Assembly: GCA_903916665.1 (NCBI GenBank)
Contig: CAIWXP010000176.1
Coordinates: 1-15,894 of the forward strand
Origin: Candidatus Iainarchaeum sp.
GTDB lineage: Archaea; Iainarchaeota; Iainarchaeia; Iainarchaeales; 0-14-0-20-30-16
DNA length: 15,894 nucleotides
Direction of reading: 5' to 3'
Position 1 is the stretch's first letter, and every line of letters begins with the position of its first letter. The notes under the pieces are model-generated. The model saw only the letters and a program-made list of their open reading frames with translations. It was not told where the DNA came from and ran no database searches. Shown here one piece after another: positions 801-15,725 of the stretch. The position numbers and the translations under genes were made by a program.

Positions 801-3800
801 ATGGGTTTGTCAGATTTATATTACAAACTAGAGGAAAAATATTATACTAGCTTAGACTGGTTTGATTCAAAAGGCATACATGTTTTTTATAAAATTGATG
901 AGTGGCTACAAAGCAAAAATATACCCTCATTTCCTGTTGTAACTATTTTTAATATATTACTTTTAGCAGTAATTGTATTATTGATATTGTATTTCACAGG
1001 AGTATTTGGTACTAATTATGTTAATGTTACAATGCAATTTGTTGATGTTACAAATAATGCCTCTGTATCAGCATTGCCAGTTTCATTAAGTTTTGATAAT
1101 GGTTCACAGGTTGGAACAACCAATGATACTGGAACATTGGAAGTGTCTTTGCCCAAGGATGCTTTGGTTCAAGTAACAATAGAATCAGATAAATATATGT
1201 TAGATAAAACTAGTTTTTCAGCAACTGATGGTGTACCAATTAAATTTGAATTAAGTGATAAAAGTAATTTGTTAGGAAATAAATTATTAAAATTATTTTC
1301 TGATTTAGATAATAAAGTATTGTTTTCAGGAAGTGTTGATGTTGATTTGACATGTAGTGGAGATGCTAATTATATAAAAAAGAAAACTGTTGTTGATGGT
1401 ACATTGGATTTGTCAGATTTACCAGATGATTGTGGTAATTTAACAGTTACTTCCTATGATCCTGAAATTTCAAAAACAATTGCAGTTACAAAAGATAGTT
1501 TAGAATTAGCAATTGATGCAAAACAAGTAACTGGAACATTAAGAGTAATAGTTCAAGATGATTCTAATAATGTATTACAAAATATGGCAGTAAGTGTTTA
1601 TTCTCAAGATTCTGTTTTGAAAGGTTCTCAAACAACAGCAGAAACTGGATTAACCGAATTTAAATTAAATTTAGGAAACTATTATGTTAGCGTTTCTGAT
1701 TCAGGTTCTGGAGAATATTCTTTTATTTCAACAAAAGATTTAAATGATTCTAGTTGTAATGATCAAATAACTGAAGCAACTCCAATTGTTTGTACTGTAA
1801 CAATGCAAAAATTAAATATTGGAAAAATAAATTTAAAAATATTAGATATTTCTGGTAAACCAGTTAGCACTGCAATAGTAGAAGTGTATAAAGGAGATTT
1901 AGAATTATTTAATGATACTTTACAACAGGATTCAAATGGATTATTTGTAAGAGGCGTTGCAGAACAAGGTCCCTACAGAATAGTTGTTGATGCTCCTCAA
2001 TATATGATTTATGATAACCCAAGTGTAATGATTTCTGATACCCCACAATCAATTACATTGGAACCAGTAAAAAGTTCACCAGTACTAAGTGTTTATGTTA
2101 CTGCAAATGATGATGTTGTTGCAAACGCAACTGTTCAATTATTTAAAGAAGGTAATTTATTATTAACAAAAACAACTGGTGCAGATGGTATTGCTTTTTT
2201 TGATAGATTAGAAACTGGAAAAGTATATAATGTTAAAGTTGTAAAAGGTGAATATTCAACAACATCTAATACAATTTCTTTAGATGCAAGACAACAAAAT
2301 AAATTAGAAGTTAAAATGGTTATTGGAAAAGGAAATGTTGATGTTGTAGTTTTAAATAAAAATGAAGAACCAGTTTTAGCAAGTGTTGAATTATTTAATG
2401 TCTATGATGATAAATCTTTGGGAACTGCAAATCAAACAGATTCAACAGGTACAGCACATTTTTATGGTATAGGTGCCGATAAAACTGTTTATGCAAAAAT
2501 TATAACAGATGCAGGAACAAGTTATAGTTTATCAAGTGATGTAATTGCAAGTCAAACTATAACATTGAATGCATATAGTATTGATGATTCAACAACATTA
2601 AATATGGAATTAGTTGGAGTTTACAATGGTGATGGTTCACAAATAAGTACATTACCCTATAATGTTGTTCCTAGTGGAGAATATTATGCAATGTTTTTAT
2701 TGCAAGTACCAAAAGGAAAATCATTTAACTCAGGAAATATATTTTTTGTTGGAGATGGAAAAACTCAAGCAGAATCAAGTATATTAATTAAAAGCACAGA
2801 AGTTTTGAATGGTCAAGAAACAAAAGGATTAACCTATACTGCTCCTTTGGGATATGCAGAAGATATGTTAAATAAAACTTCAGATAATGGTCTATGGAGT
2901 TCAGTAAATTTATCAAAAATAAATTCTGGATCAAGCTTAGTTAAAGTTGATTTTATTGTAAGTGGCGAACCTAAAAATGATTTATTTAAATTAGGATATA
3001 GAGCTAGTTTGAAAAGTGGAAGTTCAATAGTTAGAACACCAGTAGATAATATTTTGGGACAAAATGAAAGTGTTTCAGAAAAATTAGGATTCTATGCAGA
3101 AACAAGTGGATTATCATTTAAATCTGGAGATGCTATTTGTTCAGATATTGCCTGTGTTGAATTAACTGCTTTAGATTCAACTGGCTATACAACAAAATTA
3201 GGTCAAGATGCAGTATTATATTCTCAATTTAATACTGATACTGTTTTAAAATTCAAAATAGTTTCAGCAACAAAAACAGCATTAACAAATTTAAAATTAA
3301 ATATTGAATCAAAGAATTTAGGATTAAATATTTCTAATGTTAGTGTTAATGGAAAAGAATTAACAGGAAAAGGAAAATATACTTTAAATGTAGATAGTTT
3401 TAGTTCTGCTAATGGTATTTTAGGTAACATTGGTTTTACAACTGAAAAAGAAGGAGATACATTATTAACAATAACTTTATCTTCTGACAAAGAAGTTTTA
3501 TTTTCAAAAGAAATAAAAGTTAGTGTAAATAGTCCAAATAATTTAATTGTAGAATATTTGCCCACTACTATTATACCCTATGTTTTGAATTTAGGTGCAG
3601 TAGTTGTTAGTGATGCAAATGAAAAAATGCCAATTAGCGATATTTTAGTAAATGTTTATTTGAATGATAATTTAGTAACTTCTGGAAAAACAGATGGTGA
3701 CGGAACATTACCTGTTCAATTGGATAAACCAAATGCTGGTGATGTATTAAAAATTGTTGCTACTGGTCCAGGATATAATAGTGTAACAACAACAACAAAA

Positions 3801-6800
3801 ATAACCGAAAATATTTTAGTACCAAACAAACCAGAAATAGTAATTAATGTTGATAAAACAGAAAAAGAATTAGTAACAACAGATATTTCTTTAGCAACAC
3901 ATTTATTATCTAAATTGAAAATTAAAAAAGTAAGTTTTTCAACAAATAATTTTTCTGAATTTATAGATGTAAAAACAAGTATTTTACAAAACACAGAAAT
4001 TGATAGAAATATAGATGTCAATATTAGTGCACAATTAACTGATTTAGGAAAATCATTATTGGAACCAAAATCATTTAACACAAATTTAGAATTGGTTGTT
4101 AGATCCGATGAATTAGATAGACAATGGACTGTTGAAATTCCAATACAAATTTATATTAGAATGTTTGATTCCATTGATACATTAAATTGTTTACAATTAT
4201 TAGGTGATCAAAATGGAACATCTAGTTTTAAAATTGTAAATAATTGTATGTATCAAAATTCACCAATACAATTATACAATCCAACAATATTTGTTGAATG
4301 GGATGGAACTCCTTTAGGTGATTATTCTTATAATAATGATAAAATAACTGAAGATGGATTATTATTAAATAAAGAATTAAAACCTAAAACAACAACATTT
4401 TCTTTGGCCTTTACAAATAGTACAAGTATTGCTTCTGGTCAATCAAAAGTAAATATGACTTTGAAAGCCTATTTCCCAACAGAAACTGGTTTGCAAGAAT
4501 TAACTGCAAGCAAAGAGGGAGTAGTAACAGTAAGCGATTTGAAAAAATGTTTATTTATTATTGATCCAAATGGTAATCCATTAAACGCAGACACTGTTTT
4601 AATGAATCCAATAACTTTAGGAGTAGCTCAACAAACTTTGGGTGGTGGATTATTAGGTGGATTATATGGTGCACAATTAACTGCTTCAAATGGTTCTGCA
4701 TTGGGATCTCAATATGGGGGCGGCGCAACCTATTATCAAGCAGGTGCAGGTGGCACAACCAATAACTTTGATGCTGTTTTACATACAACAAGTGCTCAAG
4801 ATCCTAGTTTACTTTGGAGCGGATTACAATCACAGGCAACTGCAACTCCGGGCTATGGCACAACAGCAAGTAGTAGTACTACATCAACAGCAAATAATGG
4901 CTTTGATTCTTTAATTAGAACAGATTCATATAATTATAATATAGAAGATAATAGTAATACAATATTATTTGATGTTTATCCTTATACTCAAACTCCTGCT
5001 ATGGTAGGTGGATTAAGTACAGGTTTAACTCAACAACAATTAATGCAACAACAATTAATGTATGGTGGCCAACAAAGTCTTTATGGTGCTGGACAATATG
5101 GTGCACAACAAGCAGGTATGCTTTTACCATCAATAAACCAAATCACATTTTGGAATAAATGTAATGAACCTGTTGATATAGAAATAAGATCAGTACCTCA
5201 ATTATTTGTAAGTCCAAATACAATTTCAATTCCAGGAAATAATGCAAAGAGCCAAGTAAATATTATGTCAACTTCTTTACCAGGTAATTATCAAGTAACT
5301 GTTTTGGCAGGAACTCAGGGTAATATTTTACCTTTGATGACCATACCAGTAAATGTAATTGACTACGCTTCAAATACTGCAACGGATGATTGTTTCAAAT
5401 TATCTGATGAGCCAGTAATTAACATGAGCGATGTTTGGAAAAGAAATAAAATGATAAAAGTTTACAATTATTGTTATTCAAAAGGAGTAATTTTTGATGA
5501 TGCAACTCCTATTGCATTGCATAACTTATATTCAAGACAACCGGTTGTTGCAAAAGCAAAGGTTGGAGATTTAAATGATTTACGTATTGAACAAAATACA
5601 CCCTACGTTCAAGCAGTTGCATTGGGAGTACCAAATGTTCAAAGCAGTGCAACCTATGGTCAATACCAAGAATTAACTGTAATGTTAGAAAAAGATCCAA
5701 CAATACAAAGATTAGCAACAGAAAATCTTTCAAGAAATAATTCTGCTGGTGATTGGGTAAGTACAATAAGTTCAGTAAGATCTTCATTGGCTGATATTTA
5801 TAATAATGTTGAATTCCCTGCAATATTTGTAATCAATGCAAGAATTGGTTATGGTGCAGCAGGAATTAGAAAGAGTGTACAAAGATTAGTAACAGTAAGA
5901 GATATGTGGAATTTATTGGGTGCTGTTGATTTATATGAAAACCTAATTGGTGGAGATAAATCCTGTGTACCTAGTGATAAGTTAACTGATAAAGATAAAA
6001 ATAATAAATTCACTAGTTGGACTCCAAATATTGAAGTAACTAATGGTGAAATCTACACTTTGAAATGTAGTGATTTTAAACAATCAGAAATTAGAGTACC
6101 TTCAAGTGATTCTTTTACATTATTGAAAAAACCTTGTTTTGGAAAAGGAGATAGTGTAAAATTCAAAGATGATAAAATAAAAGCAACTGATAAAATAAAT
6201 GGAACAGATATTGAATTAGAAATAACACCTAATTTCGATTCTGGAAATATTTATTTTACAGTAAAACCAAAAACTAGTTTACCAAAAGGAACATCTGGCA
6301 CTATTGAAGTACCTGTAAATTATACTGTTCAATCATATTATCATAGTGATGCAGGTTATGATGCATTAAATAGAAAATATACTTTGAAATTAAAATTAGA
6401 TTTAGATTGTACAATTGATGGGTCAACAGCAACAACACCTGCAGATACTACAAAAGTATTATCAAAGGAAGATAGTTGGTGTGTTACAAACTTTGGTGAT
6501 AATTGGTATTCATTAAACACCTATGGATTTGGTGACTATAACAATTTATCATTGGGAAATATGTTAGCCTATAATTATCCAACAAGTAAAGCAACAGCAA
6601 AAGATTGTACAAAATACTTTTGTGATGCAGAACAATTAAAATTATTTTTAGATGGTAAATTTTCTGGATTAGGTTTTACAATAGCAACTACTCCTGTTGT
6701 ATTTAAAGATAAAAATTTAGTAACATTTGTTAGTCCTAGTACAAGAGGATTTGATCTATTACAATTAACTCCAAATGATGTATTAGATCCATTAAGTAAA

Positions 6801-7724
6801 TTTTTCTTAGATAGAGATTTAAGAACATTTGTTGATACAAATTCTGGATTGGCAGAATTTAAAAAATTAGTTGCAAACATGCCAGACTTATATTTGAAAG
6901 TAATTAATTTTAAATGTAATTCTGATGCAAATAATAATGTTGCATTTGAAGATAGTAATAATTGTTATTACAATGCAAAAATGTTATCTGAACATGTTAA
7001 AGCAGAACAAATAATGAGATCAGATTTAAACAAACCCTATGAGATTGTATTCTTAGTAGATTCAAAAACAACTCCTGGATTGGTATTGTTTAATGGTTCA
7101 TATTCTGGAAAGGGTACAATAAATAAAGTTTATTTGAAACCCGATGATTATAATAGAGTATTTAATACTGGTTTCTTAAGTTATAATGCAGAATTATTGC
7201 AAGCAACAAAAATAACAAAACCTGGTGCATATGTTGCAATAAGTTTAGAATTAGGTCCAAGCGGAAAGAAATTAATTTTATATCCTGGAAACTATTATTT
7301 AGGATCATCGGAAGATACAGTAAAAACATTGGATAAATTATTTTATAATTTACCAGTTGATCCTAGTGAAAGACCAAGCTATGCCGGACAATATGGTTTA
7401 TGTATTTCTACTGGGCAATTAAAAGTAGATGATAAAACAATATCAAGTAATTCCTGTGGATCAACTGAATTTGCAAAAGCAAAGACAGAAATATCTACTG
7501 ATAATTATTTGAGCATTGTTGGAACAAATGATTTGAAAAATTTAATAATTAAATATCCTAAATGTGATACTTCTGGTTGTGAAGTAACAATTAAAGATAA
7601 TAAAAAAGTTACAGTTCCAAAAGAAGGATATTTATTAAATGCAATATTTGATAAATCTAATGAATATTGTTATAAAGAAGAATCGAATACAATTAATATT
7701 AAATATTCTGGTGTAAAGAATTAA
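801..7724 (+). CDS. Giant (2307 aa) N-terminally anchored surface protein P1: conserved cytoplasmic N-module + TM, ~6 tandem beta-sandwich modules, Cys-pair modules, low-complexity G/Q/Y insert, P3-like C-terminal module
   Basis: Uninterrupted 6.9-kb ORF in an AT-rich sequence where stop codons are frequent. The single TM 'VVTIFNILLLAVIVLLILYF' lies after ~45 polar residues. Repeated ~85-95-aa units have the carboxypeptidase-regulatory-like pattern, for example 'GTLRVIVQDDSNNVLQNMAVSVY...TAETGLTEFKL..GNYYVSVS'. N-x-S/T sequons are dense (NVT, NAS, NGS, NDT within ~40 aa after the TM). Cysteines occur in pairs. Confidence 0.93.
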   Translation: MGLSDLYYKLEEKYYTSLDWFDSKGIHVFYKIDEWLQSKNIPSFPVVTIFNILLLAVIVLLILYFTGVFGTNYVNVTMQFVDVTNNASVSALPVSLSFDNGSQVGTTNDTGTLEVSLPKDALVQVTIESDKYMLDKTSFSATDGVPIKFELSDKSNLLGNKLLKLFSDLDNKVLFSGSVDVDLTCSGDANYIKKKTVVDGTLDLSDLPDDCGNLTVTSYDPEISKTIAVTKDSLELAIDAKQVTGTLRVIVQDDSNNVLQNMAVSVYSQDSVLKGSQTTAETGLTEFKLNLGNYYVSVSDSGSGEYSFISTKDLNDSSCNDQITEATPIVCTVTMQKLNIGKINLKILDISGKPVSTAIVEVYKGDLELFNDTLQQDSNGLFVRGVAEQGPYRIVVDAPQYMIYDNPSVMISDTPQSITLEPVKSSPVLSVYVTANDDVVANATVQLFKEGNLLLTKTTGADGIAFFDRLETGKVYNVKVVKGEYSTTSNTISLDARQQNKLEVKMVIGKGNVDVVVLNKNEEPVLASVELFNVYDDKSLGTANQTDSTGTAHFYGIGADKTVYAKIITDAGTSYSLSSDVIASQTITLNAYSIDDSTTLNMELVGVYNGDGSQISTLPYNVVPSGEYYAMFLLQVPKGKSFNSGNIFFVGDGKTQAESSILIKSTEVLNGQETKGLTYTAPLGYAEDMLNKTSDNGLWSSVNLSKINSGSSLVKVDFIVSGEPKNDLFKLGYRASLKSGSSIVRTPVDNILGQNESVSEKLGFYAETSGLSFKSGDAICSDIACVELTALDSTGYTTKLGQDAVLYSQFNTDTVLKFKIVSATKTALTNLKLNIESKNLGLNISNVSVNGKELTGKGKYTLNVDSFSSANGILGNIGFTTEKEGDTLLTITLSSDKEVLFSKEIKVSVNSPNNLIVEYLPTTIIPYVLNLGAVVVSDANEKMPISDILVNVYLNDNLVTSGKTDGDGTLPVQLDKPNAGDVLKIVATGPGYNSVTTTTKITENILVPNKPEIVINVDKTEKELVTTDISLATHLLSKLKIKKVSFSTNNFSEFIDVKTSILQNTEIDRNIDVNISAQLTDLGKSLLEPKSFNTNLELVVRSDELDRQWTVEIPIQIYIRMFDSIDTLNCLQLLGDQNGTSSFKIVNNCMYQNSPIQLYNPTIFVEWDGTPLGDYSYNNDKITEDGLLLNKELKPKTTTFSLAFTNSTSIASGQSKVNMTLKAYFPTETGLQELTASKEGVVTVSDLKKCLFIIDPNGNPLNADTVLMNPITLGVAQQTLGGGLLGGLYGAQLTASNGSALGSQYGGGATYYQAGAGGTTNNFDAVLHTTSAQDPSLLWSGLQSQATATPGYGTTASSSTTSTANNGFDSLIRTDSYNYNIEDNSNTILFDVYPYTQTPAMVGGLSTGLTQQQLMQQQLMYGGQQSLYGAGQYGAQQAGMLLPSINQITFWNKCNEPVDIEIRSVPQLFVSPNTISIPGNNAKSQVNIMSTSLPGNYQVTVLAGTQGNILPLMTIPVNVIDYASNTATDDCFKLSDEPVINMSDVWKRNKMIKVYNYCYSKGVIFDDATPIALHNLYSRQPVVAKAKVGDLNDLRIEQNTPYVQAVALGVPNVQSSATYGQYQELTVMLEKDPTIQRLATENLSRNNSAGDWVSTISSVRSSLADIYNNVEFPAIFVINARIGYGAAGIRKSVQRLVTVRDMWNLLGAVDLYENLIGGDKSCVPSDKLTDKDKNNKFTSWTPNIEVTNGEIYTLKCSDFKQSEIRVPSSDSFTLLKKPCFGKGDSVKFKDDKIKATDKINGTDIELEITPNFDSGNIYFTVKPKTSLPKGTSGTIEVPVNYTVQSYYHSDAGYDALNRKYTLKLKLDLDCTIDGSTATTPADTTKVLSKEDSWCVTNFGDNWYSLNTYGFGDYNNLSLGNMLAYNYPTSKATAKDCTKYFCDAEQLKLFLDGKFSGLGFTIATTPVVFKDKNLVTFVSPSTRGFDLLQLTPNDVLDPLSKFFLDRDLRTFVDTNSGLAEFKKLVANMPDLYLKVINFKCNSDANNNVAFEDSNNCYYNAKMLSEHVKAEQIMRSDLNKPYEIVFLVDSKTTPGLVLFNGSYSGKGTINKVYLKPDDYNRVFNTGFLSYNAELLQATKITKPGAYVAISLELGPSGKKLILYPGNYYLGSSEDTVKTLDKLFYNLPVDPSERPSYAGQYGLCISTGQLKVDDKTISSNSCGSTEFAKAKTEISTDNYLSIVGTNDLKNLIIKYPKCDTSGCEVTIKDNKKVTVPKEGYLLNAIFDKSNEYCYKEESNTINIKYSGVKN
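1020..2585 (+). repeat. Protein-level tandem array of ~6 divergent beta-sandwich (CarboxypepD_reg/PEGA-like) modules in P1
   Basis: The recurring pattern is: hydrophobic strand, D/N, 'xxxPVxxAxVxL/V', 'T(T)DxxGxxxF', 'GxYxVxV', then a final strand. Examples are 'KILDISGKPVSTAIVEVYKGD...DSNGLFV...GPYRIVVDAPQY' and 'VYVTANDDVVANATVQLFKEG...TGADGIAFF..LETGKYNVKVVKGEY'. The repeats are too divergent to see at nucleotide level. Confidence 0.6.
4621..5120 (+). other. Low-complexity G/Q/Y/S/T-rich (probably disordered) insertion inside P1
   Basis: The translation is 'GVAQQTLGGGLLGGLYGAQLTASNGSALGSQYGGGATYYQAGAGGTT ... ATATPGYGTTASSSTTSTANNG ... GGLSTGLTQQQLMQQQLMYGGQQSLYGAGQYGAQQAGM'. Local G+C is visibly higher than the flanks. 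The paralog P2 has no counterpart at the equivalent position. Confidence 0.8.
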
Positions 7725-7737
7725 AGTGGTGGATATA

Positions 7738-10700
7738 ATGGGTATACAAGATATATATTACAAATTAGAAAATGGCTATTATAGTATTTTAGATAAAATA
7801 GATAAGGCCGGATTACATGTCTATGCAATTGTTGATCCAATTGATAAAGTAGTTCCAAGTTTTGCATTAATTCTTGGTTTATTTGGATTGATAATTTTAG
7901 CATTAATATTCTATTTTGCATTTATGTTTGGTTCAGTAGGCCCAAGTACACCCGTAACTTTTTATTTTGTAGATAAATCTGGAAATCCAGTAGCAGATGC
8001 AAATGTTGAAATGTTATTAAATAGTACACCCTATAGTTACACCACAACAAAATTGGGAACCATTGCATTCGATGCTTACCAAGGAGATGTTGTTGATTTA
8101 AATATTAGCGCAGGAACTGAAACTGAAAAGATAAATGAAGTTATTTCTGATAAAACAGAATATAAATATTCATTAAGTTTTTCTTTAGAGCAGGATACCA
8201 TAAGATTTAGTGTAAATACAAATGATGGTTCGCCATTAAAAGAAATTAATATTGAATTTTTGTGTAGTAATACAACCATTGCAGCACCCAGTGCAATTTA
8301 TAGTTCTACTGCAACTGATTATTCTGTTAGTGTTGATCCACAATGTGGTAATTTAACAGCAACAGTAAAATCTAATTATTATGCAGAAGTATCTGTAACT
8401 TCTTTAACAGATTTACAAGCAATAATTGTGCAACCATTAAACTATGGTGGAAATAATTCAATAGTATTAGTTGTTTTTGATAAGGATACCAATGATTCTA
8501 TTAATGATTATTCTGCAACGGTAAGTCAAACAGGAATTGTGTTAGATAATCAAACTTCTATGAGTACTGATACAATAATGTTTTCTGGTTTATCAACAGG
8601 TTCATTTGTTGTTAGTGTAAGTAAAACAGGATATCTTCCTGCAAGTACTTCAGTAACATTACAAAGTGGTACATCAAGCGCAGTAGTTTATATGCAAAAA
8701 GATTATGCAAATATTGGTGGAAATTTATTGGTAACTGTTGTGGATGGTAGTTCAACAAGTTTGCCAAATTTATTTGGTGCAACAGTAAGTGTATACAAAT
8801 TAGATGGTGATAAACAAAGTGTTATAATTAAAAGTGCAGCAACAACATCAGATAATAATGCAACAGTAACTATTCCTGTTGATGATATGAGTTTGAATTA
8901 TTGGGTTCAAATTACAGATTCAGGATATATAACTCAAAATAAAAAATCAGTTAATCCAAGACAACCATTGGTGGTTGCATTAAATAAATTGGGGTCTCAA
9001 AGAAATGCAGTTATACAAGTATTAGATGCAGATAAAACACCAATAGGAAATGCAACAGTTGCTTTGTATGATGAAAAAGATAATGTTGTTGATCCAAATT
9101 TTGGAATAACTGATGCAAATGGTATTGCAGCAGATAAAAGTTTAGAAGAAGATGCAAAATATAAAGCCTATATTTACAAAGGACAATATAATGGTACAGG
9201 TGAATTATTTACCTATAACTCATCAACTTTACCTGCAAATGGTATTGATAGCACAGTAACATTAACATTGCCAAAATCAAGTTGGGAAATTACTTTGGTA
9301 GATAAATTTAATGCTCCTGTTCCAAATGCATTGGTAGAAATATATGATGCATACACAGGATTTCCAAATGCAGATCCAATTGAAGTAGGAACAAAATATG
9401 CGTCGCCTCAAGGTGTTTTTAGTGTATCAAATTTAAGTACAGATAAAAAATATTTTGCAGTAATTAAAGCACCAAGCTATGAAAATTATGTTAGTATTGC
9501 AAAATTTTTAGAACCAAATTCAAATGTTCAAGAAACTTTTGTTTTGGAAAAAGAAAGATTAAATAAAAAACCAGTAATAGAACAATTAGGTATTGAAGAT
9601 ACAGAAGGAAAACAGGTAATGAAATTAGGTCCTGGAAATTTATATAAAGTAAAATTTAAAATTACTTTGCCTGCTGGTGTAAAATATGATACTTTAACTG
9701 CAAATTTTTTAGTTGGTGCAGAAGATTCTTTTGTTGAAAAAGATGCAGGATATATTGATAGAGTTAATATTAGTGCGTCTGGAGTTTTAGCAAAAGGTAG
9801 AGCTTATTTGAATGGTGATTTCCAAAAAAGTATTAGTGAATCACAGACAGGAAAAGAAACAAGAGCTTTCGAAAATGATATTGTTGAAGGTACTCCATTC
9901 CAAGATGAAACTAAATGGGTTCAATTGACTTGGAATTTAAATAAATTTAATATCGAAAGTGGACAAATGTTTGTTGATTTATATTTACAAGTTAGACCAG
10001 GAACATTGGAAGGAACAACAATTCCTGTAGAATATAATATAGTTACATCTGGTGTTGATAGCCAAGGTGATGATCAAACTTATTTAGATCCTCTTGATAG
10101 TGCAACCTATGATAAAGAACACAATAGTTTGTTTAATAATAAAAAACCATTAATATTAAATGTTGGTGATGGTCAACAAATTTGTGATGATAAATTTTGT
10201 TTTGAAATGACAATATTTGATACTAATGATGAATTAAAAACAAGTGTTTCTGGAGATACTCCCTATATTGCAACATTGGGAAAGAATTATAATATGAAAT
10301 TTAATTTAATGAATAATAATATTGTTCCATTAACACACTATAGAATTGTTATTGAAAACCCACAACAAAATATTAATATGAAATCTGGAGTAATATATTC
10401 TGCAGATAATAATGCAGAAACAATGCCTCAACCAAGCAACTTTGATGACTATTTTAAATATACTTTTAGAGCAGAATCAGAAAATGATGTTTTGTCTCAA
10501 AACAGTGTAATTAAAGGGGATATTAATTTTGTTCCTATTGTTGAAGGTTCGGGTTCAATTAAATTAACAGTAATAGAAGATATGACAATAATTTACACAA
10601 AAGAATTATATGTTAGTGTTAATGCAAATAAAGAATTAAGAGTGGTTATAGAACCAGAAGTTATACCATCTTACGTAAATTTAACTGATATAAATTTTAC

Positions 10701-12471
10701 AGTTTATGATGGAAATAGCAGTGCATTTATAGATGGTGCAACGGTTAGAGTTGTTGATGTCTATAAAAATGTTTTAGCTGAAAGCGATACCAATGAATTG
10801 GGTGTTGCAAAATTAACTTTAAAATCTCAATTACCAAATATTGATTTGAAATTAAAAGTATATAAAGAAGGATTTAAAGCCTATGAAAAAATATTAAAAA
10901 CAAATGATAAATTTGTTACAATAAATCCAGAAGAATTAAAAATATCAGCAAATATTGCAGATAAATTAGGTACTGCAAAATTAACATTAACAAATACAAG
11001 TGAATTACCAGTTAAAATTACTGAATTAAGTTTAGAAGGTAATTTTGATGAGTATGTTAATTTAAGAGAAGCAAATAATTATTTATCAAATAGTAGTTTG
11101 AATAAAACAATTGATAAGAATCATTCAATTATTGTGCCGGTAAATGTTAATTTAACAACCATTGCAGAAAGTTTACAAACCAATAGAGAATATTCTGCAG
11201 ATTTAATTGTTAAAATAAGACCAGATAGTAATACAATATCAAGTACAAAAGATTGGGAATATAAAATTCCTGTTACATTGAGTATTACTTTAGGTAAAGG
11301 ATTAGATAATTTAGATTGTTTAGGTGTGGATGTTCAAAAATCTGCTTTGGTATCAACTGGTGGAAAGAATGATGAAGACACAGTAAACATTGTTAATGGA
11401 TGTACAGTAGATTCACAGCCAGTAAATTTAACAAATTTAGAAGCTAAAGTAACTTGGAAAGGAAACGCTTTGGGTAGTTTAACATTTAATAGAAATGAAC
11501 AAAGTGCAAGATTACAAAATGCATACTATGTTACATTAAATAATAAAATGACAACCCACGAGGAAGATAATTACATTGTTGATTTAGCACCAACAAATGG
11601 AAGAATCGCAGGTGTAGGTACAGTTGAAGTTTCTGTTAGAGCCGGTTATTTTGCAGACTCAGGTGTTCAATTTGTTGAAAAGAAAATTACCTATTCTGTG
11701 GATGTAATTAATATGGGAGCTTGTATAAGCTATGTTTTTCCAGATAATGAAGTTGATTTGATGACAGTTCCAAGAAATGCAAAAGGAACTTTTACAGTAA
11801 AGAACGAATGTGATACGGATATTGCATTGAAATTAGATGTATTGCCAGATCAATTTATTGATATAAGACCATTGGAATTAACAGTTCCTGCAAAGGGAGA
11901 AAAAGCAGTAATAATTGATCCAAAGAATTCTCCTGTTGGAATATATTTATTAGAAGTTAGAGGACAGGTTCCTAAACAACACTTTGAAGGAATTAAAGTT
12001 GGAAATGAAGCATTAAGAGTTTTCATTGCTCCTTTGGCCGATGATTGTTTAGTATTGGATAACTATGAATTTAATTTAATGGACACAAATGGGGGCGACG
12101 CAGAGCGTTATACTTATTTGATTAATAGATGTTATTTCAAAGATATTAAAGCAGTTTACAAATTAGATTTATTAAGAAATGATGGTTGTAAAATGGAAAA
12201 CTTTAACGGTTGGCTAACTAGCCTAGCTGGTTCAATGGTTGCGGGTGTAACCATTGGTTCAGCAATTGGTAGTGCAGTTGGTGGCGGTTGTGGTGCCTTA
12301 AACAATAGTGAAAGCTATGTTTCTGTTGATAAGAAAAAATGTATGGATGCGGCAGATCAAAACAAAGCAGATGCAAAAGCTGCTGCTGATAAAGCCGCTG
12401 CCGCAGCTGCCGCAGCAAAACCAGCAGCAACTGCAGCTTCTGCTGCTGTTCCAGCTATAACTGTTACATAG
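7738..12471 (+). CDS. Giant (~1577 aa) surface protein P2, paralog of the first ~1550 aa of P1, with C-terminal glycine-zipper helix and Ala-rich tail
   Basis: I prefer ATG 7738 to the tracked GTG 7726 for two reasons. 'MGIQDIYYKLENGYY' then aligns residue-for-residue with the P1 start 'MGLSDLYYKLEEKYY'. 'GGTGGA' (7728-7733) also sits 4-5 nt upstream as an RBS. Only 13 nt separate it from the P1 stop. Motifs are colinear with P1, for example 'CGNLT' with 16 identical nt at 8344-8359 versus 1431-1446. Confidence 0.9.
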   Translation: MGIQDIYYKLENGYYSILDKIDKAGLHVYAIVDPIDKVVPSFALILGLFGLIILALIFYFAFMFGSVGPSTPVTFYFVDKSGNPVADANVEMLLNSTPYSYTTTKLGTIAFDAYQGDVVDLNISAGTETEKINEVISDKTEYKYSLSFSLEQDTIRFSVNTNDGSPLKEINIEFLCSNTTIAAPSAIYSSTATDYSVSVDPQCGNLTATVKSNYYAEVSVTSLTDLQAIIVQPLNYGGNNSIVLVVFDKDTNDSINDYSATVSQTGIVLDNQTSMSTDTIMFSGLSTGSFVVSVSKTGYLPASTSVTLQSGTSSAVVYMQKDYANIGGNLLVTVVDGSSTSLPNLFGATVSVYKLDGDKQSVIIKSAATTSDNNATVTIPVDDMSLNYWVQITDSGYITQNKKSVNPRQPLVVALNKLGSQRNAVIQVLDADKTPIGNATVALYDEKDNVVDPNFGITDANGIAADKSLEEDAKYKAYIYKGQYNGTGELFTYNSSTLPANGIDSTVTLTLPKSSWEITLVDKFNAPVPNALVEIYDAYTGFPNADPIEVGTKYASPQGVFSVSNLSTDKKYFAVIKAPSYENYVSIAKFLEPNSNVQETFVLEKERLNKKPVIEQLGIEDTEGKQVMKLGPGNLYKVKFKITLPAGVKYDTLTANFLVGAEDSFVEKDAGYIDRVNISASGVLAKGRAYLNGDFQKSISESQTGKETRAFENDIVEGTPFQDETKWVQLTWNLNKFNIESGQMFVDLYLQVRPGTLEGTTIPVEYNIVTSGVDSQGDDQTYLDPLDSATYDKEHNSLFNNKKPLILNVGDGQQICDDKFCFEMTIFDTNDELKTSVSGDTPYIATLGKNYNMKFNLMNNNIVPLTHYRIVIENPQQNINMKSGVIYSADNNAETMPQPSNFDDYFKYTFRAESENDVLSQNSVIKGDINFVPIVEGSGSIKLTVIEDMTIIYTKELYVSVNANKELRVVIEPEVIPSYVNLTDINFTVYDGNSSAFIDGATVRVVDVYKNVLAESDTNELGVAKLTLKSQLPNIDLKLKVYKEGFKAYEKILKTNDKFVTINPEELKISANIADKLGTAKLTLTNTSELPVKITELSLEGNFDEYVNLREANNYLSNSSLNKTIDKNHSIIVPVNVNLTTIAESLQTNREYSADLIVKIRPDSNTISSTKDWEYKIPVTLSITLGKGLDNLDCLGVDVQKSALVSTGGKNDEDTVNIVNGCTVDSQPVNLTNLEAKVTWKGNALGSLTFNRNEQSARLQNAYYVTLNNKMTTHEEDNYIVDLAPTNGRIAGVGTVEVSVRAGYFADSGVQFVEKKITYSVDVINMGACISYVFPDNEVDLMTVPRNAKGTFTVKNECDTDIALKLDVLPDQFIDIRPLELTVPAKGEKAVIIDPKNSPVGIYLLEVRGQVPKQHFEGIKVGNEALRVFIAPLADDCLVLDNYEFNLMDTNGGDAERYTYLINRCYFKDIKAVYKLDLLRNDGCKMENFNGWLTSLAGSMVAGVTIGSAIGSAVGGGCGALNNSESYVSVDKKKCMDAADQNKADAKAAADKAAAAAAAAKPAATAASAAVPAITVT
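7951..9560 (+). repeat. Protein-level tandem array of ~6 beta-sandwich (CarboxypepD_reg/PEGA-like) modules in P2
   Basis: Examples: 'PVTFYFVDKSGNPVADANVEML', 'LLVTVVDGSS..LFGATVSVYKLDG', 'AVIQVLDADKTPIGNATVALYDEKD...TDANGIA', 'WEITLVDKFNAPVPNALVEIYDAY...SPQGVFSVSNL..DKKYFAVIKAPSY'. The order and module count match P1 1020-2585. Confidence 0.6.
12208..12468 (+). other. P2 C-terminal glycine-zipper hydrophobic segment followed by K/D/A then poly-Ala/Pro tail
   Basis: The translation is 'GWLTSLAGSMVAGVTIGSAIGSAVGGGCGAL ... DQNKADAKAAADKAAAAAAAAKPAATAASAAVPAITVT*'. The small-xxx-small (GxxxG/AxxxG) periodicity is typical of glycine-zipper membrane helices. The stretch is a GC-rich codon island (GCN runs) in an AT-rich gene. 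Confidence 0.7.
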
Positions 12472-12498
12472 GTATTTTATTTTTTACGGTGATTTTTT

Positions 12499-14988
12499 AT
12501 GATTAATTATAGAGAAGGGAAAAATATGAGAAATAAAATATTAGGATTTATGTTTTTATTATTCTGCATGACTTTGTTTTTTAGTCAAATATATGCAGAA
12601 GCAGCAGCATCAGGTATTGGGGGAATGCTTTCAGGTGTCGGAGGACAAACTCTAATGACTGGTGGATTAATGGCCGCTGGTTATTTAGGTGGGCAATACT
12701 TAACTAAAGCATTAGGTGGAGATAATGAAATGGCAAAAGCTAGTGGAGGTATGGCCTCAGGATTAGCAACATTAGGTGGTGCTTTAGGTGGAATTTTAGG
12801 TGGAACTGGTTGGGGTGCAATTGCAGGTATTATTGGTTCGGCTGTTGGAAGTACAGTTGGTGCAATTATGTTCGCAGCATCAAAGGATCCCTTAACAACA
12901 GTGGACCGAGGAGTTTTAACAAGAATTATTTCTTTGGATGCAAATAATGCAAGAGTATTTTCTGCAAATTATAAAGTTGCAGGTAGCGACACAGAATCAG
13001 ATTATTATGGCGCAGAATACAAAGCAGATAAAAACTTTATTAAAAAAGATAAAGATACTTACTTTGAATATACTCCTGTAAAAATAACAACTAAAAGACA
13101 ATTAAATGGCTCAGGATCAATACCAAAGGAAGTTGACACAGCAGTGTTAGTTTTTGATACAAGAGGATTACCAGATTATTTGTATAAAAGTACAGGAAAT
13201 CCCGGTGCATTAAATCCTTTAGCAGCAGGTACTCAAACACCAGTAAATGGTGCAGCAACTTCAGTATATTCTGGATCAACAACAGATCCATTTGCAGGTG
13301 CATTAGAATTGAGTGATGATTCAAGACAGGAAATGGGTTGGTGTAAAGCCAATGATCAAAGTGAATTAGAAGCAGTGGATAAAATTGTATCAAAGAATTG
13401 GGTACAAAAATTAGCTGAAGATGAAAAACAATCAAACCAAGAATCATTTGTTTTATTATTGAAATATTTAAAGCCTCAAGAAGAAGCTATTCAAATACCT
13501 TCATATAATTGTTTAGGTCCTAATGGATTATTAGGTGTAACTGGCGCAGATAATGCTCCAAAAGTATTATATGATTGGTCATGGAATACTGTAGGTGGAG
13601 TAAATACTGATTTTTGTAGTTCGGGAAATTATTATTGTGATTCAACACAATTTATGATATTCCTATTAAAAAGATTAGAAAAATATAATACTTTAGCAGC
13701 AAGTATTGATGGAAATGTATCAAGCACTGCTGATTTAAATGGAAATAGCACAGGTTACCAAAAACAAATATATGATAATTTAAATTTTAAAACATATATG
13801 ATGTTAGATGGTTTTACTCAAGACTTTTTGAAAGATTTTAAAGACTATGCAGTTAATACAAGTTATTTGGGATTTCCTTCTGATGAACAGGAAAAGTTTT
13901 CAGCAATGTTACCAGATAAAGTATCATTTAGACCTTTAAGTGGAGAAACAGTAAATCCCGAAGGTTATAGATTACCTCAAGCTGGTGCATACAATGTTGT
14001 AATAGAAGTAACCTATAAAGATGGTACAACAAACTATGAATTATTTAATAATAATAAAATATCAGATAACGTAAGTAATATCTATGTTTATTTTGAACCA
14101 GTTTCACAGGAAGTAAATCCAATTTATAATATGCCTTTGGATGCAACTGTGGGTGTGGATAAACAAGTTATAGATAGAATTGGCTATGGTGTAGATTATT
14201 CAGGAGATTCTATTTGGTTTAAAATGGACCCAAATAATAGTATGTTATTAGATCCTACTATGAGATCTAATTCAACACCAATAGTTCATTTAGACATGGT
14301 AACAAAAGCAGATACTCAAAGTCTAAATGGTTTTATGAAAGGCACAGTATTGCAAATAATTCCTAAATCAGGAGCAAATGGTGTTGCCTATGCAGTAACA
14401 AAATATAAATCATTGCCAACCTATGTTGATTTAACAATTAATAAAAAAACAGAGGGCGGAGCCTATGCTTATTATTCAATAGACTTTGGAGATAGCGGTG
14501 CACCACAGAATGCAGGTAATTCTTTTATATTGTGGAATTTAATATGTACAAAAGACAATCCAGGTTGTGAAAGTTTTAATGGTGCAAAAGAAACTGATGA
14601 TATGTATTTATCAGATAAATTGGGAGTAAATGCCAAGGTTGCACCAACTGGGCAAGTACAAGGTTTTGTCTACGGATTAGAATGGGATAAAGATTCTATA
14701 ATAAGAGATGGAAAACATAATTCTGTAAATTACAGAGGTATGGTATATATGCCCGATGATTTAGGCTCAGTAAATTTTAATGTGGTTATTGCAAGTGATA
14801 GTTCAGTTCCTGCAGTAGGTTCAACTCAAATATTAACTTCTAAAGTTGATGGAAAATTAGAAGATATAGCTGGTATATTTGATAGAATGAAAAACAATGA
14901 AATTTGTATGAGCAAAGATGGTTCAGGTATAAGATTCTGGTGGAACCCTGCAAAGGTAATGGGTTTAGCAGAAGCACCTACAAATTAA
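12499..14988 (+). CDS. Secreted/membrane-associated protein P3 (829 aa; 820 aa if ATG 12526): Sec-type signal peptide, ~95-aa Gly-rich glycine-zipper region, large Cys-containing domain resembling the C-terminal extension of P1
   Basis: 'GGTGAT' (12488-12493) lies 5-6 nt before ATG 12499. The alternative ATG 12526 yields a canonical signal peptide, 'MRNKILGFMFLLFCMTLFFSQIYA|EAAASG'. The Gly-rich block runs 'GIGGMLSGVGG...GGALGGILGGTGWGAIAGIIGSAVGSTVGAIMFAAS'. Motifs are colinear with P1 6470-7724 (see findings). The ORF is followed by a hairpin plus oligo-T. Confidence 0.9.
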   Translation: MINYREGKNMRNKILGFMFLLFCMTLFFSQIYAEAAASGIGGMLSGVGGQTLMTGGLMAAGYLGGQYLTKALGGDNEMAKASGGMASGLATLGGALGGILGGTGWGAIAGIIGSAVGSTVGAIMFAASKDPLTTVDRGVLTRIISLDANNARVFSANYKVAGSDTESDYYGAEYKADKNFIKKDKDTYFEYTPVKITTKRQLNGSGSIPKEVDTAVLVFDTRGLPDYLYKSTGNPGALNPLAAGTQTPVNGAATSVYSGSTTDPFAGALELSDDSRQEMGWCKANDQSELEAVDKIVSKNWVQKLAEDEKQSNQESFVLLLKYLKPQEEAIQIPSYNCLGPNGLLGVTGADNAPKVLYDWSWNTVGGVNTDFCSSGNYYCDSTQFMIFLLKRLEKYNTLAASIDGNVSSTADLNGNSTGYQKQIYDNLNFKTYMMLDGFTQDFLKDFKDYAVNTSYLGFPSDEQEKFSAMLPDKVSFRPLSGETVNPEGYRLPQAGAYNVVIEVTYKDGTTNYELFNNNKISDNVSNIYVYFEPVSQEVNPIYNMPLDATVGVDKQVIDRIGYGVDYSGDSIWFKMDPNNSMLLDPTMRSNSTPIVHLDMVTKADTQSLNGFMKGTVLQIIPKSGANGVAYAVTKYKSLPTYVDLTINKKTEGGAYAYYSIDFGDSGAPQNAGNSFILWNLICTKDNPGCESFNGAKETDDMYLSDKLGVNAKVAPTGQVQGFVYGLEWDKDSIIRDGKHNSVNYRGMVYMPDDLGSVNFNVVIASDSSVPAVGSTQILTSKVDGKLEDIAGIFDRMKNNEICMSKDGSGIRFWWNPAKVMGLAEAPTN
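12598..12880 (+). other. Glycine-zipper / Gly-rich membrane-interacting region of P3
   Basis: About 95 aa with roughly one third Gly and repeated GxxxG/GxxxA spacing. The last segment, 'GWGAIAGIIGSAVGSTVGAIMFAA', is long and hydrophobic enough for a TM helix. Confidence 0.7.
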
Positions 14989-15066: not shown

Positions 15067-15105
15067 GTTTGGTGACTAATTATTATTAGTTGATAACTTT
15101 TAGTG

Positions 15106-15375
15106 ATGAATATGTTAGAAAAAAGAAAAACCATGCCTACATTGAATACTGTTATTATGGTTGAAAATACCATAAAGAACAGCCCCTGTAGTGTGATAAA
15201 AATATCTGAAATTAAAAGAGCTTTACCTAAACAAATTAATCATAATACTTTAAAAGTTATTTTAGAGTATTTAGAGAAAAGTAATAAGATTGCATTTACT
15301 TCAAAAGGAATTACCTGGATTCATAATGATAATCCCCATTTAAGGGTTGTTATAAATAAAGGTTTAGAAATATGA
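15106..15375 (+). CDS. Small winged-helix-like DNA-binding protein, candidate antitoxin/regulator
   Basis: ~87-90 aa; the start is ambiguous (GTG 15103, ATG 15106, ATG 15112). 'IKISEIKRALPKQINHNTLKVILEYLEKSNKIAFTSKGITWI' has a helix-turn-helix plus beta-wing (wHTH) pattern. Its stop overlaps the next gene's start (ATGA, 15372-15375). Confidence 0.65.
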   Translation: MNMLEKRKTMPTLNTVIMVENTIKNSPCSVIKISEIKRALPKQINHNTLKVILEYLEKSNKIAFTSKGITWIHNDNPHLRVVINKGLEI

Positions 15376-15725
15376 AAGAAGTTAGAGTTATTCTATCTCC
15401 TGATGCAGAAGAGGTATATAAGTATTTAATAAAAGAATCAAAGAATTCTAAGATAGAGAAAACTATTTTTACTGCTTTAATAAAGAAAGTTGAATTAATA
15501 AAGTCAAACATTCATTATGGAAATCCTATTGAAAAGAATTTGATTCCAAAAGAATATGTTGAAAAATATCAAATAAAGAATTTATTTAGAGTTGAATTAC
15601 CAAATTTTTGGAGATTGTTATATTCTTTAGTTGATGGTGAAACAAATGTAGAAATAATTGCATTTGTTTTAGATATTGTTGATCATGATAAATATAATAA
15701 ACGATTTGGTTATAAAAAGAAATAA
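15372..15725 (+). CDS. RelE/ParE-superfamily-like toxin (candidate type II TA toxin)
   Basis: 117 aa. 'NLFRVELPNFWRLLYSLVDGETNVEIIAFVLDIVDHDKYNKRF' fits the RelE/ParE core pattern (xFRxxLxxxxRLIYxV...V.I..I..H..Y), with basic/aromatic residues (H, Y, R) near the C-terminus. The 4-nt ATGA overlap with the upstream small gene implies translational coupling. The family call is by eye only. Confidence 0.6.
   Translation: MKEVRVILSPDAEEVYKYLIKESKNSKIEKTIFTALIKKVELIKSNIHYGNPIEKNLIPKEYVEKYQIKNLFRVELPNFWRLLYSLVDGETNVEIIAFVLDIVDHDKYNKRFGYKKK

Follow-up and report, generated by a model that had tools for sequence, protein, structure and literature searches.

The stretch of DNA analysed here (the window) comprises 15,894 nucleotides (nt) of contig CAIWXP010000176.1 from a Candidatus Iainarchaeum sp. 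(GenBank assembly GCA_903916665.1). It contains three very long open reading frames (ORFs) on the forward strand, designated P1 (801..7724, 2307 amino acids, aa), P2 (7738..12471, 1577 aa) and P3 (12499..14988, 829 aa), which are separated by gaps of 13 nt and 27 nt. An earlier reading made from the letters alone (the sequence-only reading) had described three co-oriented ORFs of these sizes and spacings, and the ORF coordinates confirmed the description. For P2 the ORF listing starts at GTG 7726; the conserved N-terminus starts at ATG 7738, which gives the 1577-aa form present in the public protein collection, and a Shine-Dalgarno-like GGTGG (7728..7732) lies 5 nt upstream of this ATG. The database form of P3 has 820 aa and starts at ATG 12526. 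From their tight spacing on one strand, P1, P2 and P3 are predicted to form an operon. We consider it likely that two members of a single family of giant surface proteins, membrane-anchored and fibrillar-adhesin-like, are encoded in tandem as paralogs at this locus, P1 being a divergent single-chain copy and P2+P3 a copy which was split into a stalk half (P2) and a head half (P3).

BLASTP aligned P1 1–1257 with P2 5–1340 in colinear fashion (24% identity, E 5e-44). The last domain shared by both proteins (P1 1448–1563, P2 1356–1474) gave a Smith-Waterman (SW) score of 53 and a z value of 5.2; one of 1000 shuffles equalled this score, which makes the match weak but significant. On the basis of these alignments P1 and P2 are colinear paralogs, as the sequence-only reading had proposed. 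Both start with a motif of about 45 aa, MG[LI]xDxYYKLExxYYxxLDxxDKxGIxVY, which lies before a transmembrane (TM) helix, at positions 801–935 in P1 and 7738–7870 in P2, and is found at the same place in all giants. In P1, the motif (MGLSDLYYKLEEKYY...) and the TM helix (aa 46–64, Kyte-Doolittle (KD) hydropathy 2.98) together occupy 801..1010. The helix is the single strongly hydrophobic one in both P1 and P2 (KD 2.4–3.0), and no other strong hydrophobic segment was present. The core of the motif, MG[LI]xDxYYxLExxYY, and the single TM helix were present in P1, P2, L001, L002, L009, L019 and L9g3, and the giants align from residue 1–5 onwards. This N-terminal motif is the best-conserved region of P1, with 73% identity to the ortholog of locus L019 and 47% to P2 (array 27%), and also the most conserved part of the whole family (47–73% identity vs 27–56% elsewhere). 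It had no match in Pfam, NCBIfam or PDB sequence searches. The N-terminus of P1 would appear to be a type II signal anchor with the motif on the cytoplasmic side, where the motif may act as a docking or targeting element.

The beta-sandwich array, or stalk, of P1 (1011..4571) is homologous to the array of P2, as indicated by the BLASTP colinearity, and an array of this kind, colinear over ~1,400 aa and characteristic of the family, was found in both proteins. The Pfam domain CarboxypepD_reg (PF13620) was detected above its gathering threshold of 32.3 bits in P1 (57.9 bits, E 1.3e-15) and P2 (59.4 bits, E 4.4e-16), and was not detected in P3. Matches to bMG3, SdrD_B, Big_1, SpaA and PEGA-type domains in the arrays of P1 and P2 remained below threshold. 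N-glycosylation sequons, which had been thought numerous, are not enriched over the values expected from composition (27 vs ~32 in P1, 23 vs ~19 in P2, 7 vs 8 in P3). In P1 the array is followed by a low-complexity insert rich in Gly, Gln, Ser and Thr (aa ~1262–1440; 4584..5120), which is absent from P2, interrupts the BLASTP alignment and shows 35% identity to the ortholog. Then follow the last Ig-like domain (5121..5510), whose Cys pair DDCFKL...YNYCY corresponds to DDCLVL..INRCY in P2 1356–1474 and which is kept in P0002, P0003 and L9p1, and a middle region of ~310 aa (aa 1571–1880; 5511..6440) with the motifs NARIGYG, TVRDMWNLL and CFG..D.VKF. The middle region is conserved among P1-type proteins; hhalign and hidden Markov model (HMM) searches against the P3 family detected no counterpart of it in P2 or P3. 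The remainder is the P1-type C-terminal head module (aa 1881–2307; 6441..7721). The orthologs of P1, namely L019/P0163 (full length, 2416 aa), P0002, P0003, P0004 and L9p1, show 37% identity in the head vs 56% in the stalk, the head being the fastest-evolving folded region. P2 is composed of the N-terminal motif, the TM helix and the beta-sandwich array, and ends with a Gly-rich segment and an Ala-rich tail.

Relatives of P3 were sought by an exhaustive HMMER scan of 1.84 billion cluster representatives. The scan yielded 404 relatives, 282 of them at E <= 1e-10. Five are standalone proteins of ~800 aa with 39–52% identity to P3; most others have 2,000–3,250 aa, and P3 ~330–812 aligns to their extreme C-terminus. 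In local phmmer comparisons, P2 was covered over its whole length by the first ~1,450 residues of these giants (E down to 1e-100), and P3 was matched by their last ~500. In P0040 (2380 aa), for example, residues 3–1524 correspond to P2 5–1576 (E 1e-99) and residues 1829–2357 to P3 306–812; P0027, P0100 and P0025 matched full-length P2 with E about 1e-98 to 1e-100. P1 matched the giants over residues 1–1250, with E down to 1e-55. P2 and P3 (1577 + 820 aa) therefore correspond to one chain of ~2,400 aa. Such a chain is encoded in L009, a Ca. Iainarchaeum metagenome-assembled genome (MAG; JAQTTP010000003), where one ORF of 2,609 aa lies directly after a P1-type gene; its residues 6–1497 match P2 4–1526 (E 2e-264) and its residues 2181–2600 match P3 419–824 (E 2e-76). 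By alignment and gene order this ORF is the syntenic fused ortholog of P2+P3. Since P2 and P3 are matched across one giant chain, they are not a split of P1, and the view of P1 as a fusion of P2 and P3, or of P2 and P3 as a split of P1, was too literal: P1 is a paralog of the ancestor of P2+P3, and it was in the lineage of this ancestor that the split took place. The underlying idea of the sequence-only reading, that the same giant extracellular architecture occurs here once as a single chain and once as two chains, is supported.

In a scan of species-representative genomes the family turned up in Ca. Iainarchaeum/Diapherotrites, with the complete AR10 genome among the carriers; two cluster members with a named source are annotated as hypothetical or as "carboxypeptidase regulatory-like domain-containing" (Ca. 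Diapherotrites). The guess of a small-genome episymbiont, made from the letters of the window, fits these relatives, which belong to the DPANN lineage Iainarchaeota/Diapherotrites. A word-indexed protein search with P3 returned P3 itself only, and one with the P1-tail alignment returned no new proteins. The survey of related genomes for fused and split states, which had been suggested as a check, revealed the fused ORF of L009, standalone forms in at least seven genomes and conserved adjacency of P1-type and P2-type genes in five (window, L001, L002, L009, L019). Tandem giants are the rule: pairs occur in L013, L016 and L018 and a set of three in L009, while in L004 and L006 another giant is located about 7 kb off. 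By its C-terminal head module P3 belongs to the family; P1 shows this module only as a remote, divergent variant and should rather be regarded as representing a sub-family.

P2 and P3 are in the same reading frame, with two stops between them. The junction (12469..12498) contains the TAG stop of P2 at 12469, an in-frame TGA at 12487 and a Shine-Dalgarno-like GGTGA (12488–12492), 6 nt before the ATG of P3. On the upstream side, P2 ends with a Gly-rich hydrophobic segment (GWLTSLAGSMVAGVTIGSAIGSAVGGGCGAL) and a Lys/Ala-rich low-complexity tail (12193..12468). On the downstream side, P3 has a signal peptide (MRNKILGFMFLLFCMTLFFSQIYA; 12526..12597), recognised by sequence and hydropathy, and then a second Gly-rich segment with GxxxG-type repeats (WGAIAGIIGSAVGSTVGAIMFAA; 12598..12888, KD 1.81), which shares 40% identity with its counterpart in the fused ORF of L009. 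The likeness to Gly-zippers was noted by eye only, as Pfam searches at E up to 1 reported no Gly-zipper families for P2 or P3. The order in the fused giants is: last Ig-like domain, first Gly-rich segment, a variable linker (Cys-, Pro/Thr- or Gly/Thr-rich), second Gly-rich segment, the equivalent of P3 130–330, and head. A Gly-rich segment plus linker equivalent to the end of P2 was found inside the fused P0040, P0017 and L009 ORF, and the signal peptide of P3 is absent at the equivalent position of the fused proteins (21% identity over a forced alignment). As judged from these alignments, the break lies within the low-complexity linker between the two Gly-rich segments. The GC content of the window, 0.26–0.31 (background ~0.28), climbs to 0.36–0.39 at 11500–13000, coincident with the Ala/Gly-rich end of P2 and the start of P3; this rise is a compositional footprint of the low-complexity hinge and not foreign DNA.

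Standalone P3-type proteins with a signal peptide and an intact ORF were found in L001, L004, L005, L006, L007 and L008 and as P0005–P0009 (34–52% identity), and the split state is kept in at least seven genomes. Standalone forms of ~1,000 aa with a signal peptide occur in other clades (P0011, P0013, P0032, P0076, P0054, P0031, P0074). In a rough neighbour-joining (NJ) tree of the last 430 residues, on which fused and standalone states were placed by Fitch parsimony, the fused state was at the root and at least three changes of state were required; P3 of the window fell into a clade of standalone forms only. P2/P3 is accordingly placed, from tree and alignments, as a genuine and old fission of an ancestral single-chain giant, because fused orthologs and hundreds of fused members exist and parsimony roots on the fused state. 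Stop-codon recoding or a single nonsense mutation at the junction was considered and rejected; two different stops are present, and the three long ORFs are intact under translation table 11. In L001 the P2 ortholog is broken into ORFs of 1149 and 368 aa (2750–6199 and 6196–7302) in different frames with a 4-nt overlap. In contrast to the clean fission between P2 and P3, this break probably reflects a frameshift, due either to misassembly or to pseudogenisation.

The head module of P3 (aa ~330–829; 13486..14985) consists of a helical subdomain, an acidic motif and a beta-rich body, with conserved Cys positions. An AlphaFold2 (AF2) model of P3 255–829, calculated with a 47-sequence alignment, reached a mean predicted local distance difference test (pLDDT) of 87.4 and a predicted template modelling (pTM) score of 0.82. 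Besides a long helix, it shows the helix with YCDxTQF, a unit of strand and helix with the acidic DG[FY]xxDFxxDF, and a large beta-rich body of more than 20 strands, the last being the FWWNP strand; the model depicts the head as a compact folded module. Signature motifs of P3-type heads are the YCDATQF helix, YLMKDGYxxDF, RxGYG and FWWNP. Foldseek searches against PDB and BFVD gave no structural relative, only generic jelly-roll or Ig-like noise (TM score <=0.14), and nothing was found for P3 or the tail of P1 in Pfam, NCBIfam or PDB sequence searches. These searches also agree with the sequence-only reading in that no enzymatic motif was recognised. We found no description of this protein family in the literature.

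Whether the C-terminus of P1 is homologous to P3 depends on the sensitivity of the comparison. Pairwise it is not apparent: the best BLASTP high-scoring segment pair had E 0.47 (YFCDAEQLKLFL / YYCDSTQFMIFL), and SW z values were 1.5–2. With the P3-family HMM (169–235 sequences), P1, P0002 and P0003 scored no better than shuffled sequences; hhalign of a three-sequence P1-tail profile against a two-sequence P3 profile and against the P3 family gave a probability of ~1%, and its global modes yielded no usable signal. A pentapeptide RIGYG occurs both in P1 (1681) and in P3 (560); as the two positions are not colinear, we took it for a chance match. A bridge is provided by L9p1, the P1-type gene of L009 (2–4126), which aligns to P1 1167–1950 with E 2e-40. 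The P3-family HMM scored L9p1 with 17.7 bits for the domain and 21.9 bits for the full sequence, compared to shuffle maxima of 5.4 and 7.8, respectively; the match region is "PkvkldWsW...C...iYCDATQF" of the HMM. The head of L9p1 keeps P3-like motifs which were lost in P1 (YFCDQYQF, ANLMKGKYSAEF, SIKVWVNDNW); past the head it has a C-terminal extension of ~165 aa (residues ~1210–1375), which is absent from P1. A metagenome scan yielded, besides the full-length P1 ortholog of L019, a secreted standalone protein of 842 aa (L020/L021), whose last 428 aa match P1 1881–2304 with E 3e-44 and which therefore delimits the P1-type head as a discrete module. This protein (L020, 447–2972, and L021, 447–2969; P0164/P0165) has a Cys-rich N-terminal half unrelated to P1, P2 or P3, followed by the P1-type head; as far as the alignment goes, the P1-type head thus occurs on a different secreted carrier.

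In the reverse direction, an HMM made from P1-type sequences only, without the bridge, matched the head of L9g3, which with 232 bits against the P3 HMM is a true giant of P3 type. The score was 16.4 bits, or 18.8 bits when, as in the null comparison, only the C-terminal 750 aa were taken; the pattern of the match is PGxY...(40 aa)...LYxxPxD...YG. Six real P3-type modules scored above the maximum of 5.0 bits that was reached by 2,448 shuffled or reversed controls, 29% of the real P3-type modules exceeded the 95th percentile of the null and 8% the 99th, and all weak matches landed at the two expected colinear regions. With the bridge included, hhalign found three colinear local matches: the CDAxQ helix (E 2.3e-3), YLKPDNYxxF...PGAY...YNLPIDP vs YLMKDGYxxDF...GxY...YxMPxD (E 3.7e-4), and the terminal NYCY...IKY vs vCv...FWWNP, which with E 0.18 is not significant alone. 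Most of the motif pairs which the sequence-only reading had matched by eye lie within these matches: CDAEQ, PGAY and YNLP are contained in the two significant segments, and the terminal NEYCY is in the third. An additional pair, VYLKPDDYNRVF / TYMMLDGFTQDF, was found. The homology of the P1 C-terminus and P3 proposed in that reading thus failed in pairwise comparison and was recovered only remotely, through profiles and the bridging sequence. Very probably, as these profile comparisons suggest, the P1 tail (1881–2307) is homologous to the P3 head but strongly diverged from it, which also fits the fast evolution of the head among P1 orthologs. The structural check which had been recommended worked for one side only, with a confident model for the P3 head and a poor one for the P1 head.

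With homology, architecture, fission point, polarity and conservation of the split state established by the comparisons above, the following picture is proposed. A canonical member of ~2,400 aa would consist of a cytoplasmic motif of ~45 aa, a TM signal anchor, a stalk of ~1,400 aa made of CarboxypepD_reg/Ig-like beta-sandwich domains, a hinge in which a low-complexity linker of variable sequence is flanked by two Gly-rich segments, and a C-terminal globular head of ~500 aa. P1 is then a single-chain copy with a head so diverged that it is hardly recognisable. In the other copy, P2+P3, the gene was split within the linker of the hinge, with anchor and stalk on P2 and the head on P3; P3 gained a ribosome-binding site and a Sec-type signal peptide of its own, by which the detached head would still get outside. 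Everything beyond the TM helix should be extracellular: a detached head which needs a signal peptide argues that the part following the anchor is outside. It also argues against an uneven count of membrane crossings by the Gly-rich segments, and such a topology was rejected for this reason. A surface location is further in keeping with the single strong N-terminal TM helix and with the Ig-like/CarboxypepD_reg arrays. As the fission occurred at the hinge, with one Gly-rich segment kept on each side, docking of P3 to the tip of P2 is predicted by Rosetta-stone logic; the head could re-associate non-covalently, possibly via the two Gly-rich segments which flank the break.

As to function, the architecture points to a stalk-plus-head adhesin for cell or host contact, in which the stalk would present a ligand-binding head to a host, a partner cell or a surface. 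The conservation gradient, with the N-terminal motif at the conserved end and the P1 head at the variable end, suits an anchor, a stalk and a variable head. As the stalks are similar and the heads divergent, binding specificities may differ, and tandem paralogs carrying different heads may widen or change specificity. An extended version, a modular contact apparatus of stalk and exchangeable head, so far in Iainarchaeota only, with the Gly-rich hinge as a non-covalent docking joint, seems doubtful to us. If true, heads would be encoded separately (P3, the ~1,000-aa forms), moved to other carriers (L020) and exchanged from stalk to stalk, with a change of partner specificity; the head would represent an undescribed fold, and the cytoplasmic N-terminal motif might couple the fibre to an intracellular partner. 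Cassettes of phage tail-fibre adaptors and receptor-binding proteins would be a functional analogue.

Several explanations compete with this interpretation. The break between P2 and P3 might be a pseudogenising or assembly artefact in one giant gene, of which only a truncated P2 would be made; the common frame of P2 and P3 would allow this, and MAG assemblies of such genes are error-prone, as the broken P2 ortholog of L001 illustrates. The two stops, the SD-like site of P3, its complete new signal peptide without counterpart in fused giants, and the standalone form conserved with an intact ORF in several genomes led us to reject this explanation; it is extremely unlikely and effectively refuted already. 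Another possibility is that the C-terminal region of P1 is unrelated to P3 and was gained by domain replacement, P1 being paralogous only over the stalk; the distinction of fused and split versions would then hold only for P2/P3 vs the giants of other genomes. It would be in line with the non-significant pairwise, HMM and three-sequence profile comparisons, with hhalign probabilities which did not exceed 59%, with the 310-aa region of P1 that lacks a counterpart, and with the AF2 model of the P1 head, which offers no structural confirmation. We regard replacement as very unlikely, considering the score of L9p1 far above its shuffle maximum, the P3-type modules above all controls, the colinearity of the weak matches as well as of the three hhalign segments, and the same position of both modules at the C-terminus of paralogous proteins.

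The main functional rival is a role in the S-layer or cell envelope scaffold, P2/P3 forming a stalk and canopy like SlaB/SlaA instead of a host-contact adhesin. Archaeal S-layer proteins are typically membrane-anchored arrays of Ig-like domains, which the giants resemble, and the genes are large and conserved across the phylum. S-layers are composed of one or two proteins, according to a review (PMC5744192). Several divergent tandem paralogs per genome with fast-evolving heads would suit variable interaction proteins better than one abundant lattice protein; moreover, S-layer proteins do not usually have an N-terminal signal anchor that is combined with a conserved motif on the cytoplasmic side, and neither the PDB sequence search nor Foldseek gave a match to solved S-layer proteins. 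A scaffold role is therefore judged unlikely. The view of the locus as two paralogous, adhesin-like giants has its own weak points. The homology of the P1 and P3 heads rests on weak profile scores, and the AF2 model of the P1 head (7-sequence alignment, pLDDT 48) was unusable for fold comparison, agreeing with the P3 model only in the secondary structure near the shared motifs. In the NJ tree, which is rough, the fused L009 ORF groups beside the standalone P0011, which could mean either that the gene was fused again or that another split occurred independently. No P2-type gene could be recognised directly before the P3-type gene of L006. The searches found no ligand or enzymatic motif for the head, so that adhesion is deduced from the architecture alone, and the Gly-rich segments are moderately hydrophobic (KD 1.4–1.8), which would permit membrane embedding and alter the topology.

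The family may be compared with several known systems. Bacterial fibrillar adhesins possess a stalk of Ig-like, SdrD_B, SpaA or CarboxypepD_reg-type domains and a terminal adhesive domain, according to a published description (PMC8286594). The giants resemble them in the very long chain, the tandem beta-sandwich stalk, the distal globular module, surface anchoring and fast distal divergence. They differ in being archaeal (DPANN), in the anchor, which is an N-terminal TM helix with a putatively cytoplasmic motif and not an LPXTG/sortase or type I secretion system, in the head, for which searches of Pfam, PDB and BFVD gave no match to known adhesive domains, and in the recurrent fission of stalk and head. 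Lineages with ultra-small genomes put several percent of their coding capacity into a few huge extracellular proteins, which are presumed to serve host contact. Giants of episymbionts of DPANN and the candidate phyla radiation (CPR) include the SPEARE proteins of Nanohaloarchaeota (PMC6642349) and giant proteins of nanohaloarchaea (PMC10266531). The DPANN context is similar; the phylum is a different one (Iainarchaeota), no sequence relationship was found, and Pfam/NCBIfam searches of P1, P2 and P3 detected no protease, nuclease or lectin domains of SPEARE type.

In Sulfolobales, SlaB and SlaA are a membrane-anchored stalk and a separately secreted outer protein, which are encoded by adjacent genes and assemble non-covalently. 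An anchored stalk protein and a separately secreted partner from adjacent genes are likewise present here, and assembly of P2 and P3 is predicted. In contrast to SlaA/SlaB, there is no homology, the two-gene state is derived from a one-gene state, a single-chain paralog adjoins, and a lattice is not indicated. P2 and P3 are also like a Rosetta stone pair, since adjacent genes correspond to one fused gene in relatives, for which the standard argument predicts physical interaction; unlike usual pairs, they stem from a secreted giant, a signal peptide was gained de novo, and the state changed at the same hinge at least three times.

Giant surface proteins in small-genome symbionts and gene fission as such are already known. 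New are the definition of the family (by a P2-type N-terminal region together with a P3-type C-terminal module), whose identified members are all from Iainarchaeota, with an uncharacterised head and a presumably cytoplasmic N-terminal motif, and the recurrent fission of stalk and head next to an unsplit paralog, accompanied in the examined lineages by the gain of a signal peptide. Attachment to other cells is the presumed way of life of DPANN archaea, and to our knowledge the contact molecules are essentially undescribed beyond a few cultured Nanoarchaeota and Nanohaloarchaeota. A large uncharacterised family has now been defined, with at least 404 cluster representatives and with its parts (motif, TM helix, stalk, hinge, head) delimited, and a confident predicted model of its head domain, for which no known structural relative was found, is available. 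The recurrent fission at one hinge is a natural experiment, which marks a site where the protein can be cut and predicts an interaction of stalk and head. Annotations can be corrected: "hypothetical" proteins of ~800–1,000 aa are detached heads of giants. Concrete targets are thereby provided for cryo-electron tomography, proteomics and heterologous binding work in enrichment cultures.

Some observations concern neighbouring genes. In L006 (GCA_053535955.1) a gene for an AAA_14 ATPase and a fragment of AbiEii lie before the standalone P3-type gene (584–2751), which suggests that mobile or defence genes were inserted at the fission point or that the head gene was relocated. In the window, a DUF192 (COG1430) gene at 291–647 on the reverse strand is divergent from P1 (Pfam E 1.8e-10; NCBIfam PRK03760 below cutoff); it has no relation to the findings on P1, P2 and P3. 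Scans of the window found no tRNA or Rfam features. Just 3' of P3 are two small genes on the forward strand (15103–15375 and 15372–15725; 90 and 117 aa) with a 4-nt overlap. Their layout resembles a toxin-antitoxin pair, and Pfam gave only a sub-threshold match to DUF2709; related loci hold HicAB, MazEF, PIN/RHH, AbiEii and AAA_14 genes at this place. A gene for a NOG1-family GTPase is found in convergent orientation immediately or shortly after the P3-type gene in L001, L004, L005 and L006, at a position which the window does not reach; such neighbours are consistent with an archaeal origin.

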